Positions 60,457-61,171 of a stretch of DNA of 64,000 nt are shown in pieces. How positions within the stretch are numbered: the stretch's first letter is position 1; every line of letters starts with the position of its first letter. This DNA comes from Bdellovibrionales bacterium (lineage in GTDB: Bacteria > Pseudomonadota > Alphaproteobacteria > UBA9219), in assembly GCA_041649025.1 (NCBI GenBank), contig JBAZNY010000002.1, forward strand, positions 2,614-66,613, given 5' to 3'. The notes beneath the pieces were generated by a model, which was given only the letters and a program-made list of their open reading frames with translations, was not told the origin of the DNA and ran no database searches. The position numbers and the translations under genes are program-made.

Positions 60457-61171
60457 TAGTAACGCAGCCTTAGTAAAACTGAACCATATGCGGGAAACTC
60501 CTCAAAAACCGCCACGTACTTATGGATTTTTAAACAATCCATAGTCATAATCGTGGAGGACACGGGGACAATCCGCAGGAAAGACTCGGTTTTGCAAGAA
60601 ATCGAGAATCCTCAGAGACTTTACGTTCAGAAAGCTGCCAAAATGAAGTTAGAACCACAGTGGATTGTTGGATTTGTTGATGGCGAGGGTTGTTTTCATG
60701 TGGGCATAGCTGTCCATAAGGAAATGACTGTCGGTTATCAAATTCTTCCTGAATTCAATGTTGTTCAACACAAACGCGATGAGCAAGTTTTGCATGCCTT
60801 AAAGGCATATTTCGGTTGCGGGGTTGTTAGAAAAAACCACGACGATCGATTAACCTATCGGGTTCGCAAATTTGAACATCTAACGGCAATCATTGCCCCG
60901 TTTTTCATGAAGCATTCGCTCAAAACGAAGAAAAATACTGACTTCAAAAAGTTTTGTAGTGTTTTGCGTCTTATGGAAAAAGGACGGCATTTAACGGTGG
61001 AAGGTCTTGAAGAAATTAAGGCCATCGCCGAACAAATGAACGTCAAGGGCATGTACGCAGAAGCGCTCGCTGTCGATGATGAATCCGACGACGAAGCCGT
61101 TTGTTAAATACTTCTATCGAGGCGCTTTAAGATAAAGTCCGACTTTTGCGGAAACGTAAGAGATGTGATCG
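60457..61171 (+). mobile_element. group I-like intron in 23S rDNA, inserted after the U equivalent to E. coli U1931
   Basis: The universal sequence ACGGTCCTAAGGT/AGCGAAA.TCCTTGTCGGGTAAGTTCCGACC is split. The 5' exon ends in T (60456) and the insert ends in G (61171). Intron GCCTTAG (60467-60473) pairs with exon CTAAGGT (60450-60456), giving a P1 helix with a U-G wobble at the splice site. The insert contains a LAGLIDADG ORF. Confidence 0.8.
60643..61107 (+). CDS. LAGLIDADG-family homing endonuclease (single-motif type)
   Basis: MKLEPQWIVGFVDGEGCFHV carries the LAGLIDADG-type motif. At 154 aa from the ATG at 60643 it is typical of homodimeric enzymes such as I-CreI and I-CpaI. The ORF track starts at a GTG at 60553. 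Confidence 0.8.
   Translation: MKLEPQWIVGFVDGEGCFHVGIAVHKEMTVGYQILPEFNVVQHKRDEQVLHALKAYFGCGVVRKNHDDRLTYRVRKFEHLTAIIAPFFMKHSLKTKKNTDFKKFCSVLRLMEKGRHLTVEGLEEIKAIAEQMNVKGMYAEALAVDDESDDEAVC

Follow-up and report, generated by a model that had tools for sequence, protein, structure and literature searches.

The group I introns in the 23S rRNA genes of Thermotoga are reportedly active and self-splicing, the LAGLIDADG protein of the Thermotoga neapolitana intron is said to stabilize and activate its own intron, and the 23S group I intron of Simkania reportedly stays unspliced in the mature rRNA. Position L1931 of 23S rRNA is the documented site of LAGLIDADG introns in Simkania, Synechococcus and Thermotoga, with introns of 654 to 700 nt and proteins of 143 to 167 aa; the T. 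neapolitana intron is listed there, and the site of the Simkania intron is called the I-CpaI target site (PMC1995217), both associations of Simkania and I-CpaI with this position having been made correctly in an earlier note on the present DNA. The L1931 introns of Synechococcus lividus C1 and Synechococcus sp. C9 are IC1-like, with a complex P5, a classical IC1 P7 and no P2 (Haugen et al. 2007, PMC1995217). In CPR bacteria, group I introns encoding LAGLIDADG_1 proteins occupy 23S positions 1917, 1931, 1952, 2593 and others (PMC11270868). In the literature consulted, the bacterial hosts of L1931 introns are Chlamydiae, Thermotogae, Cyanobacteria and CPR bacteria.

The window, by which we mean the whole 64-kb stretch of DNA analyzed, very probably carries a mobile group I intron of this L1931 lineage, IC1-like, without P2 and with an extended P5, whose P8 loop holds a homodimer-type LAGLIDADG gene. 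It is a known kind of mobile element, familiar from Thermotoga, Simkania, cyanobacteria, CPR bacteria and organelles, in a new host. This host, an uncultured alphaproteobacterium, was placed by the likeness of its Lon protein to Lon of Alphaproteobacteria MAGs.

The 23S gene and its insertion site

Rfam LSU_rRNA_bacteria matches the host 23S gene over its full length (58667-62128, 2597 bits); the gene lies in an rrn operon with a 16S gene at 56136-57627, tRNA-Ile at 57888-57964 and tRNA-Ala at 58066-58141 (both from ARAGORN), and a 5S gene at 62203-62317. All coordinates are those of the window and, unless stated otherwise, refer to its plus strand. This is the one 23S gene in the 64 kb and it is interrupted by one intron; neither a second copy of the intron nor an intron-less junction was found in the window. 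When the gene is aligned to the bacterial LSU model, a single large insertion, about 718 nt long, follows ...GGUCCUA, and the model resumes at AGCGAAA. Direct reading fixes the boundaries, the 5' exon running through ...CCTAAGGT to 60456 and the 3' exon starting with AGCGAAACTCC at 61172. The insert at 60457-61171 is 715 nt long and its final letter is G, which agrees with the split of a conserved 23S stretch described in the earlier note.

Standard numbering of E. coli 23S rRNA places the helix 69 (H69) uridines at 1911, 1915 and 1917 and m5U at 1939. The last letter of CCTAAGGT falls on raw position 1930 of an annotated E. coli 23S gene of 2903 nt and, since this copy runs one below the standard, the insertion site is U1931/A1932. 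A related locus with two introns (L006) has a 14-nt exon between them, AACGGTCCTAAGGT, whose length equals 1931 minus 1917 and agrees with a site at 1931. The intron of the window sits between U1931 and A1932 of E. coli 23S rRNA, that is, at L1931, where the earlier note had put it.

Public data hold 3063 relatives of the encoded protein at E <= 1e-10; 36 loci, spread over several phyla, were retrieved, and these numbers put out of date the remark that group I introns in bacterial rRNA genes are rare. Both junctions are readable in 31 of the loci, and the junction CCTAAGGT/...G/AGCGAAA is identical in all of them, across several bacterial phyla. We give next to no credence to the idea of an assembly chimera, or of an intron remnant that has decayed and lost its function. 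Although rRNA operons are prone to misassembly in metagenomes, an independent second assembly (L009) has the same intron in identical arrangement at 99.86% identity, and the junctions are base-exact in 31 loci. Decay does occur in this family, as in L037, where the ORF is truncated at 88 aa and the 3' core is unrecognizable, but in the window every core element is intact and the full-length ORF has a dN/dS of 0.04-0.08.

The ribozyme and its predicted splicing

The match to the Rfam model Intron_gpI (RF00028) reaches 59.6 bits, above the gathering score of 50, with an E value of 1.3e-12 over the whole 64 kb. We rejected Rfam's own 5' helix assignment, which starts 33 nt inside the exon and mistakes 23S helix 69 for P1 and the true P1 for P2. 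In our hand-built model from P1 to P10, every helix is base-paired, P2 is absent and P5 is complex. The earlier note had suggested both a covariance search and a fold by hand, and the two results, together with comparative support for P3 to P9, uphold its assignment of the insert to group I.

P1 (60450-60473) pairs the last seven exon bases, CUAAGGU (60450-60456), with the internal guide GCCUUAG (60467-60473) across a 10-nt loop. The helix is the one proposed in the earlier note; its pairs (7/7) are invariant in 17/17 relatives and the wobble U60456·G60467 marks the 5' splice site. Within the loop, CGC (60463-60465) can pair with GCG of the 3' exon (61173-61175, 3/3 pairs) to form P10. A CGC lies 7 nt or less upstream of the guide in 13/17 relatives, P10 is 50% paired in the raw alignment, and this 3-bp helix is a weak candidate for holding the 3' exon. 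With no P2, the joint from P1 to P3 is five nt (UAAAA). P3 pairs CUGAAC (60479-60484) with GUUCAG (60625-60630) in the hand model and the 17-relative alignment; 6/6 pairs form in the window, 100% of cells are paired, and 4/6 pairs change on both sides among the 17 relatives.

The P4-P6 domain (60489-60612) comprises P4 (60489-94/60572-77), P5 (60499-503/60564-68), P5a (60512-16/60552-56), P5b (60521-28/60536-43), P6 (60578-80/60610-12) and P6a (60585-93/60598-606), and it reappears in unconstrained minimum-energy folding at -41.5 kcal/mol. Among the 17 relatives P4 is invariant, and both sides change in 9/9 pairs of P6a and 6/8 pairs of P5b. The 5' strand of P7 (60615-60622) consists of G60615, a bulged A60616 and GACUUU, and its partner is AAAGUCC at 61134-61140. 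By analogy with IC1 introns, G60617-C61139 would be the guanosine-binding pair. CAGAGAC and AGUCC are invariant in the 17 relatives, so that the P7 core yields no covariation evidence; three distal P7 pairs hold in 11/17 and fail in 6/17.

The 5' strand of P8 (60632-60649) is AAGC, a bulged U and GCC (60632-39), followed by the distal stem GAAGU (60645-49), and these segments pair with 61121-61127 and 61110-61114, respectively. The 3' strands, ACUUC ... GGCGCUU (61110-61127), were placed by the hand model and the 17-relative alignment. All 12/12 pairs of P8 form; the proximal part has six pairs that change on both sides, and the distal stem occurs only in the clade of the window. Next come J8/7, UAAGAU, and the 3' strand of P7 (together 61128-61140), where AAGAUA(A/G)AGUCC is conserved across relatives. 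P9 (61144-61161), a hairpin with a GAAA loop, has 7/7 pairs, changes both sides in 7/7 and is paired in 96.6% of cells. The terminal guanosine G61171 (omega-G), which the earlier note had read as the last base of the insert, marks the 3' splice site and is conserved as G in each of the 31 related introns with both junctions.

The fold was examined in 17 related introns, with 3' partners slid out of register and 500 shuffles as controls. Paired cells amounted to 83.3%, compared with 28.7-52.0% with slid partners, and 35 pairs changed on both sides, compared with 12-22; none of the 500 shuffles reached the observed value in any measure. Compensatory changes are present in P3, P5b, P6a, P8 and P9. 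The strings GCCUUAGU, UAUGCGGG, AUCCGCAGG, CAGAGAC and AGUCC and the terminal G are invariant in the 17 relatives, although substitutions at synonymous sites of the ORF approach or exceed saturation (dS 0.9 to >3). The insert is, by its sequence, a complete group I intron of the self-splicing type, and splicing is predicted. When 10 of the loci were scanned with Intron_gpI, only the closest clade of the window passed; the model misses relatives whose ORF overlaps the core, which is a limit of its sensitivity and not an absence of the intron.

Bacterial rRNA intervening sequences (IVSs) are typically about 100-200 nt, replace a helix tip and form one long hairpin, with no ribozyme core or ORF. 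The present insert measures 715 nt and interrupts a single-stranded linker; within it are a group I core and an ORF of 154 aa, and features of an RNase III-processed IVS are missing, as is a simple extended hairpin in place of a helix tip. We consider it very improbable that the insert escapes removal with exon ligation, whether by persisting in mature 23S rRNA or by being excised so that the 23S is left in pieces, as with an IVS. A group I intron at the same site in Simkania is reportedly unspliced (Everett et al. 1999), and would be a precedent for retention, but here the insertion falls in a universally conserved linker next to H69, and the Thermotoga introns are reportedly active and self-splicing (Nesbø & Doolittle 2003). 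Across phyla, moreover, the core stays invariant and compensatory changes preserve its helices, as would be expected only of a fold in use.

In the splicing pathway that we propose, the intron would be transcribed within the rrn precursor, and the last seven exon bases, CUAAGGU, would pair with the guide GCCUUAG to form P1. An external guanosine, held at the P7 pocket (G60617-C61139, beside bulged A60616), would attack after U60456 of the U·G wobble. G61171 would then occupy the pocket while the short P10 holds the 3' exon, and the exons would be ligated. Ligation would restore the conserved linker between H69 and H71, ...CCUAAGGU-AGCGAAAC..., with CCUAAGGUAGCGAAAC as the predicted ligated-exon junction in the spliced rRNA. 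We counted against this mechanism the length of P10, at only 3 bp, and the failure of the three distal P7 pairs in 6/17 relatives.

The endonuclease gene in the P8 loop

The insert encodes a LAGLIDADG homing endonuclease of 154 aa, starting at ATG 60643 (60643-61107; Pfam LAGLIDADG_1, E 2.5e-25; PDB 5gkk, E 2.4e-52). The ORF lies wholly in the P8 loop (L8) and overlaps only the distal P8 stem, with its AUG in a P8 internal loop. The earlier note had given a range of 154-184 aa. The 154-aa reading stands, and the 184-aa reading from GTG 60553 was rejected, as homologs all begin MKLEP or MDLxP at the position equivalent to the ATG. The 30-codon GTG extension overlies P5a-P4'-P6-P7-P3' and is conserved ribozyme core read as codons; it looks conserved in P0010 because the underlying RNA is conserved. 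Two minus-strand ORFs inside the intron, of 48 and 65 aa, were treated as chance. The earlier note had also held that about 250 nt outside the ORF would mean a compact or overlapping core, but 250 nt suffice for a full core, and the concern does not apply here because there is no P2 and the ORF is wholly in L8. Overlap of core and ORF does occur in relatives with 138-aa proteins, whose ORFs run into J8/7.

Evidence from Pfam, PDB and structure prediction agrees with the earlier description of a single-motif LAGLIDADG ORF. The LAGLIDADG_1 match reaches 89.7 bits against the Pfam cut-off of 23.1 and covers a single stretch, residues 38-137 of the 184-aa reading, and the sequence match to 5gkk spans the full length. 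The one LAGLIDADG motif is IVGFVDGEGCF, in which E15 aligns with the acidic position of the motif; D13, G14, E15 and G16 are invariant in 35 homologs, and E15 is the predicted catalytic acid and metal ligand. An AF2 model (pLDDT 86.6) has an alpha-beta-beta-alpha-beta-beta-alpha core, with elements in the order H-E-E-H-E-E-H-H-H. Its top Foldseek match is I-TnaI, at 61% identity, TM 0.85/0.89 and 1.0 Å rmsd. Thermotoga had been named in the earlier note merely as an example host; the example holds, and the closest characterized relative is in fact I-TnaI. The C-terminal tail (residues 138-154) is disordered, acidic and conserved within the clade of the window. The dN/dS values of the ORF point to strong purifying selection. 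No identical entry was found in public records for the exact sequence of the endonuclease, nor for those of Lon and an SLT-domain protein of the same DNA.

On sequence and modeled structure, the protein is a single-motif LAGLIDADG homing endonuclease of the homodimer type, with dimerization and cleavage predicted; having only one domain, it would have to dimerize. Its message would be the excised intron or the precursor. The dimer would cut intron-less 23S rDNA across the ligated junction, at a predicted target TAACGGTCCTAAGGTAGCGAAACTCCTTGTC, and repair from an intron-bearing copy would copy the intron in, that is, homing. The best pseudo-palindrome in the intron-less target has 5/11 symmetric positions, which is weak and uninformative on the homodimer model. 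The analogy with I-TnaI suggests that the protein may have a second, maturase role, assisting the folding of the intron that encodes it. We infer splicing, translation, cleavage and homing from sequence and modeling. The position of the AUG inside P8, and the lack of a Shine-Dalgarno-like sequence before AUG 60643 (GUUCAGAAAGCUGCCAAA-AUG), were counted against the mechanism, and so was apparent vertical descent in the clade of the window, with respect to current mobility.

Descent of the intron and comparison with known systems

The alphaproteobacterial clade of the window comprises the window and three related loci (L010, L011 and L012), for which exon/intron identities are 96.1/83.8, 91.6/79.4 and 89.4/75.6%. 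Because intron divergence tracks exon divergence, these values suggest that the intron descended vertically within the clade, over about 10% 23S divergence across the sampled exon stretches. We therefore also weighed a reading in which the intron splices but its protein acts mainly as a maturase, no longer as a homing endonuclease, so that the intron is a vertically inherited and effectively immobile resident. Besides the parallel fall in identities, this would fit the conserved acidic tail peculiar to the clade, a dN/dS that is unexpected for a purely selfish endonuclease once fixed, and, with I-TnaI as the closest solved structure, the reported case of a LAGLIDADG protein that stabilizes and activates its own T. 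neapolitana 23S intron (Mo et al. 2011). We nevertheless consider it unlikely, if with a real chance of being right: a pure maturase would not need the catalytic acidic residue or the motif, whose D13, G14, E15 and G16 are all invariant, and maturase and endonuclease activities are not mutually exclusive. A mobile intron with a homing endonuclease is the reading that we prefer.

A more speculative reading, which we regard as a long shot, is that a free-living alphaproteobacterial lineage inherited the L1931 intron and its endonuclease vertically, and that mitochondrial L1931 introns could have the same root. Were trees of introns and endonucleases to place the L1931 introns of Acanthamoeba and green-algal mitochondria beside this clade, the mitochondrial introns could go back to the alphaproteobacterium from which mitochondria arose. 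The view that bacterial rRNA introns are derived from organelles would then be reversed or revised, and no later transfers from organelle to bacterium or from bacterium to organelle would be needed. A lesser version of the same reading would take the clade-specific acidic tail and purifying selection as signs of a protein domesticated as a maturase.

The window and the fetched relatives add Alphaproteobacteria, Gemmatimonadota-like bacteria (Longimicrobiales), Deinococcota (Trueperaceae), Clostridia and Bacteroidota to the hosts of such introns, so that the picture of an element very rare in bacteria needs updating; understanding of how these elements work is unchanged. In annotation, the 23S gene should be given as two exons and an intron, and the ORF as a 154-aa endonuclease in place of a hypothetical protein of 184 aa. 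Surveys by PCR or read mapping across this part of the 23S gene will overlook the host organism or record it at the wrong size. The protein is a possible meganuclease scaffold, a mesophile-type relative of I-TnaI with, presumably, a 20-22-bp rDNA target.

Among known systems, the I-OnuI family (I-OnuI, I-SmaMI, I-PanMI and I-LtrI) shares the fold and active-site motif of the window protein, which each half of these enzymes matches over its entire length (E 1e-37 to 1e-51, 33-42% identity, TM about 0.8). These are two-domain monomeric pseudo-dimers of about 300 aa from fungal mitochondria, with protein-coding or other targets, whereas the window protein has one domain. The CPR introns share the protein family, the single LAGLIDADG domain and, among their sites, 1931; however, CPR bacteria (Patescibacteria) often have many insertions per 23S gene, whereas just one intron interrupts the 23S gene of the window, whose host lies outside the CPR. 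The 23S intron of Simkania negevensis and the chloroplast I-CpaI intron of Chlamydomonas pallidostigmatica have the insertion site of the present intron, and the latter resides in an organelle.

The Synechococcus C1 and C9 introns, likened by their description, have the architecture seen here, with the gene for a single-motif LAGLIDADG protein placed in a peripheral loop, but differ in their cyanobacterial hosts, intron lengths (666-675 nt) and protein lengths (162-167 aa). The L1931 introns of T. neapolitana, T. petrophila and T. naphthophila, with I-TnaI (PDB 5gkk), share both host gene and site. They measure 698-700 nt and encode 162 aa (PMC1995217), compared with 715 nt and 154 aa in the window, whose host is an uncultured alphaproteobacterium and whose protein ends in an acidic tail of about 17 residues. 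The absence of P2 in the window is not lineage-wide: some relatives at the same site have a P2 hairpin, namely those whose proteins are most like I-TnaI (MDLxPDW..., L006-L008 and L027-L034), the Thermotoga intron itself being known by description. I-TnaI remains the best sequence and structural match, both proteins are single-motif LAGLIDADG enzymes, and through it the window protein is, judged from sequence and the predicted model, orthologous to the endonucleases of the known L1931 introns.

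Interruption of the 23S rRNA gene at L1931

The window contains a single rrn operon, comprising genes for 16S rRNA (56136-57627), tRNA-Ile, tRNA-Ala, 23S rRNA (58667-62128) and 5S rRNA (62203-62317). Comparison of the 23S gene with the bacterial LSU model gives a continuous alignment with one interruption, an insertion of ∼718 nt after ...GGUCCUA, beyond which the match picks up again at AGCGAAACUCCUUGUCGGGUAAGUUCCGACC. Direct reading places the end of the 5' exon (...CCTAAGGT) unambiguously at 60456 and the restart of the 3' exon at 61172, leaving the 715-nt insert of the earlier note (60457-61171; first bases TAGTAACGCAGCCTTAG, last bases GATGTGATCG). 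The last base of CCTAAGGT is raw position 1930 in the annotated E. coli 23S; as this reference copy (2903 nt) is numbered one below the standard, with the helix-69 uridines at 1910/1914/1916 rather than 1911/1915/1917, the insertion site is U1931/A1932, i.e. L1931, which agrees with the earlier placement after U1931. The numbering was cross-checked in the related locus L006 (1-900), where an upstream intron at site 1917 is followed by a 14-nt exon (AACGGTCCTAAGGT) and then by the 1931 intron, 14 being 1931 minus 1917. Elsewhere in the window's 23S gene, ∼42 LSU-model positions (274-315) are absent at 58925-58935, which probably reflects a shortened domain I helix typical of the lineage, and the spliced length is only 2747 nt. 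Just upstream of the operon, a patch of low GC (51233-54194; 39.8% over 52001-54000 versus ∼53% elsewhere) encodes a 530-aa TPR_12/TPR_10-repeat protein adjoining a RhuM-family protein and may be an acquired island.

With the ORF product as query, 36 related loci were gathered from GTDB genomes and JGI metagenomes, and in 31/31 with both junctions readable the intron lies at exactly CCTAAGGT/...G/AGCGAAA. A 3.67-kb low-coverage contig, JBAZER010000092.1 (L001/L009), binned as 'Candidatus Omnitrophota', is 99.86% identical to window 57395-61064 across the 16S 3' end, tRNA-Ile, tRNA-Ala, 23S and intron; it represents the same species, assembled independently. The independent assembly and the 31 identical junctions exclude an assembly artefact. 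The window is part of a contig of 185.8 kb. Its Lon protease is 90 to 96% identical to proteins of MAGs labelled Alphaproteobacteria, and the neighbours are ordinary chromosomal genes (a GyrB/ParE-type topoisomerase subunit, Lon and SHMT); given these alphaproteobacterial flanking genes, JBAZER010000092.1 has probably been binned wrongly, and its LAGLIDADG protein credited to Omnitrophota in error.

Group I ribozyme architecture and covariation

The insert is a group I intron, as the earlier note had read it: Rfam Intron_gpI matches 60424-61161 at 59.6 bits (gathering score 50; E 1.3e-12 for the whole window), and helices P3 to P9 have comparative support. Because the Rfam alignment misassigns 23S helix 69 as P1 and the real P1 as P2, the secondary-structure model was made by hand, and all helices of P1-P9 but P2 were assigned. 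P1 (60450-56/60467-73, 7 bp) carries the U60456·G60467 pair that marks the 5' splice site and the insert ends in G61171, both as noted earlier; 5 nt (UAAAA) join P1 to P3 (60479-84/60625-30). The P4-P6 domain (60489-60612), also recovered by unconstrained folding, comprises P4 (60489-94/60572-77), P5 (60499-503/60564-68), P5a (60512-16/60552-56), P5b (60521-28/60536-43), P6 (60578-80/60610-12) and P6a (60585-93/60598-606). P7 consists of G60615-C61140, a bulged A60616 and 60617-22/61134-39, P8 of 60632-39/61121-27 with a distal stem at 60645-49/61110-14, and P9 of 61144-50/61155-61 with a GAAA loop, while a P10 of 3 bp (60463-65/61173-75) is possible. The core fits outside the ORF, which is confined to L8, disposing of the earlier worry that it would be compact or overlap the ORF.

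Covariation was assessed on the ribozyme parts, without the ORF, of 17 distinct introns of the no-P2 architecture. Standard pairs fill 83.3% of cells, versus 28.7 to 52.0% with the 3' partners slid by 1 to 3 columns; changes on both sides occur in 35 pairs (12 to 22 with slid partners), and the covariation score is 0.296 (0.065 to 0.120), with 0/500 shuffles equalling any of these measures. Compensatory changes are found in 4/6 pairs of P3, which is 100% paired, and in P5b (6/8), P6a (9/9), P8 (6/7) and P9 (7/7). P1, P4 and the P7 core are invariant, so that covariation is uninformative on these helices either way. The invariant strings (GCCUUAGU, UAUGCGGG, AUCCGCAGG, CAGAGAC, AGUCC and the terminal G) are exactly those that a functional ribozyme should keep unchanged. 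P10 is paired in 50% of cells of the raw alignment, with a CGC motif ≤7 nt from the guide in 13/17 relatives; the three distal P7 pairs are kept in 11/17 introns, and the distal P8 stem is confined to the window's own clade. That the intron stays in the mature rRNA, as reported for the Simkania intron at L1931, is unlikely here because the ribozyme fold is evidently under selection.

Two structural subtypes occupy L1931 among the related loci, one without P2 (the window, L002-L005, L010-L026) and one with it (L006-L008, L027-L034); in the latter, P2 is a GC-rich hairpin capped by a GUAA/GCAA loop, P1 reaches into the intron, and the proteins (MDLxPDW...) more closely resemble I-TnaI, the endonuclease of the Thermotoga neapolitana 23S intron. 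Several introns per 23S gene are frequent: the 23S of L002 (440-5091) spans 4651 nt with an additional ORF-less group I intron at 3553-3797, and L002, L004 (330-4251) and L006 diverge again directly after ...GTCGGGT (about site 1951). L037 (572-1258) is a decaying copy at L1931, its endonuclease ORF cut to 88 aa and its J8/7, P7' and P9 unrecognisable in the last 72 nt. Intron_gpI scores below gathering on L013, L016, L019, L020, L023 and L036, clear same-site homologues of which the first five are members of the covariation alignment; Rfam-based surveys therefore undercount this lineage.

The LAGLIDADG gene and its product

The ORF can be read as 184 aa from GTG 60553 or as 154 aa from ATG 60643. 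We rejected the longer reading, since homologues all start at the ATG-equivalent (MKLEPQW... or MDLxPDW...) and the 30-codon extension overlies P5a, P4', P6, P7 and P3' of the ribozyme core; the gene is thus 60643-61107. Of the single-motif ORF of 154-184 aa described earlier, the single LAGLIDADG_1 copy and the shorter length stand. The likeness of the extension between the window and the homologous protein P0010 is a by-product of RNA conservation. The gene lies wholly inside the P8 loop: AUG 60643 falls within an internal loop of P8, the first three codons supply the 5' strand of the distal stem, and the reading frame closes ahead of that stem's 3' strand. Direct reading found no Shine-Dalgarno-like sequence ahead of the AUG. 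In relatives of 138 aa (L002-L005 and others) the stop is the TAA contained in the conserved J8/7 string AAGATAAAGTCC, so their ORF overlaps the P8 3' strand and J8/7; the ORFs of the window's clade stop sooner, and their proteins have an acidic tail instead.

The product matches Pfam LAGLIDADG_1 (one copy, E 2.5e-25) and, along its entire length, PDB 5gkk (E 2.4e-52); in the PDB sequence comparison each half of I-OnuI-family enzymes also matches it. An AlphaFold2 model built with 35 homologues (pLDDT 86.6, pTM 0.80) predicts the expected helix-strand-strand-helix-strand-strand-helix core, with disorder in the acidic C-terminal tail (138-154) only, and its best Foldseek match is 5gkk, annotated as I-TnaI (61% identity, TM 0.85/0.89, 1.0 Å rmsd), bearing out the LAGLIDADG identity claimed earlier. 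Within the GFVDGEGCF motif D13, G14, E15 and G16 are invariant among the 35 homologues, E15 sitting, by sequence, at the metal-binding acidic position. Values of dN/dS against the three closest relatives (0.076, 0.038 and 0.047; dS 0.9 to 3) show clearly that selection maintains its function.

Descent, mobility and relation to known introns

The three closest introns, L011, L010 and L012, share 83.8, 79.4 and 75.6% identity with the window's, and their sampled 23S exons 96.1, 91.6 and 89.4%; this parallel fall fits vertical inheritance in a clade of Alphaproteobacteria. At window position 61179, which corresponds to 1939 of the E. coli 23S (m5U1939), the 3' exon of the window, L010 and L011 (AGCGAAAC) departs from the U shared by E. 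coli, the Rfam consensus and the remaining 14 aligned relatives. The change is specific to the lineage, affects a highly conserved base and lies 8 nt from the insertion site, within the likely endonuclease target. Remoter copies, with proteins 57 to 74% identical, come from another Alphaproteobacteria MAG and from Longimicrobiales, Trueperaceae, Clostridia and Bacteroidota; in all, 3063 proteins belong to the family at E ≤ 1e-10. With these relatives and the 36 loci, the earlier description of such introns as rare in bacterial rRNA genes is out of date.

The data show the insertion site, the covarying RNA architecture, the fold of the protein, its conserved motif and the selection acting on it. 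The best-supported account is the standard one, in which guanosine would start self-splicing, restoring the H69-H71 linker, and the translated endonuclease would act as a homodimer, cleaving intron-less 23S rDNA and moving the element into it by homing. The most credible variant is that the protein persists chiefly, or additionally, for a maturase role, which is reported for the T. neapolitana LAGLIDADG protein on its own intron; this predicts vertical descent with very low dN/dS, a pattern that the window's clade fits, but the intact catalytic motif argues for retained nuclease activity. The earlier note's observation is confirmed and its interpretation supported, with minor corrections to ORF length, core fit, rarity and closest relative, I-TnaI being the closest characterised relative of the window's protein.

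Haugen et al. 2007 (PMC1995217) tabulated L1931 introns with single-motif LAGLIDADG genes from Simkania negevensis (654 nt, 143 aa), as the earlier note had stated, Synechococcus lividus C1 (675 nt, 162 aa), Synechococcus sp. C9 (666 nt, 167 aa) and three Thermotoga species (698-700 nt, 162 aa), with further examples from the organelles of green algae and the mitochondria of Acanthamoeba. A 2024 survey (PMC11270868) found LAGLIDADG_1 genes throughout CPR bacteria at 23S positions 1917, 1931, 1952, 2593 and others. The cyanobacterial (Synechococcus) L1931 intron has been described as IC1-like, lacking P2 and combining a complex P5 with a P7 of the classical IC1 form (Haugen et al. 2007, PMC1995217); the window's intron has this architecture. 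The element has every testable feature of this group and is of a well-known kind; it differs from known L1931 introns only in its ORF lying fully within L8, its clade-specific acidic C-terminal tail and its Alphaproteobacteria host, the last being its addition to the group.
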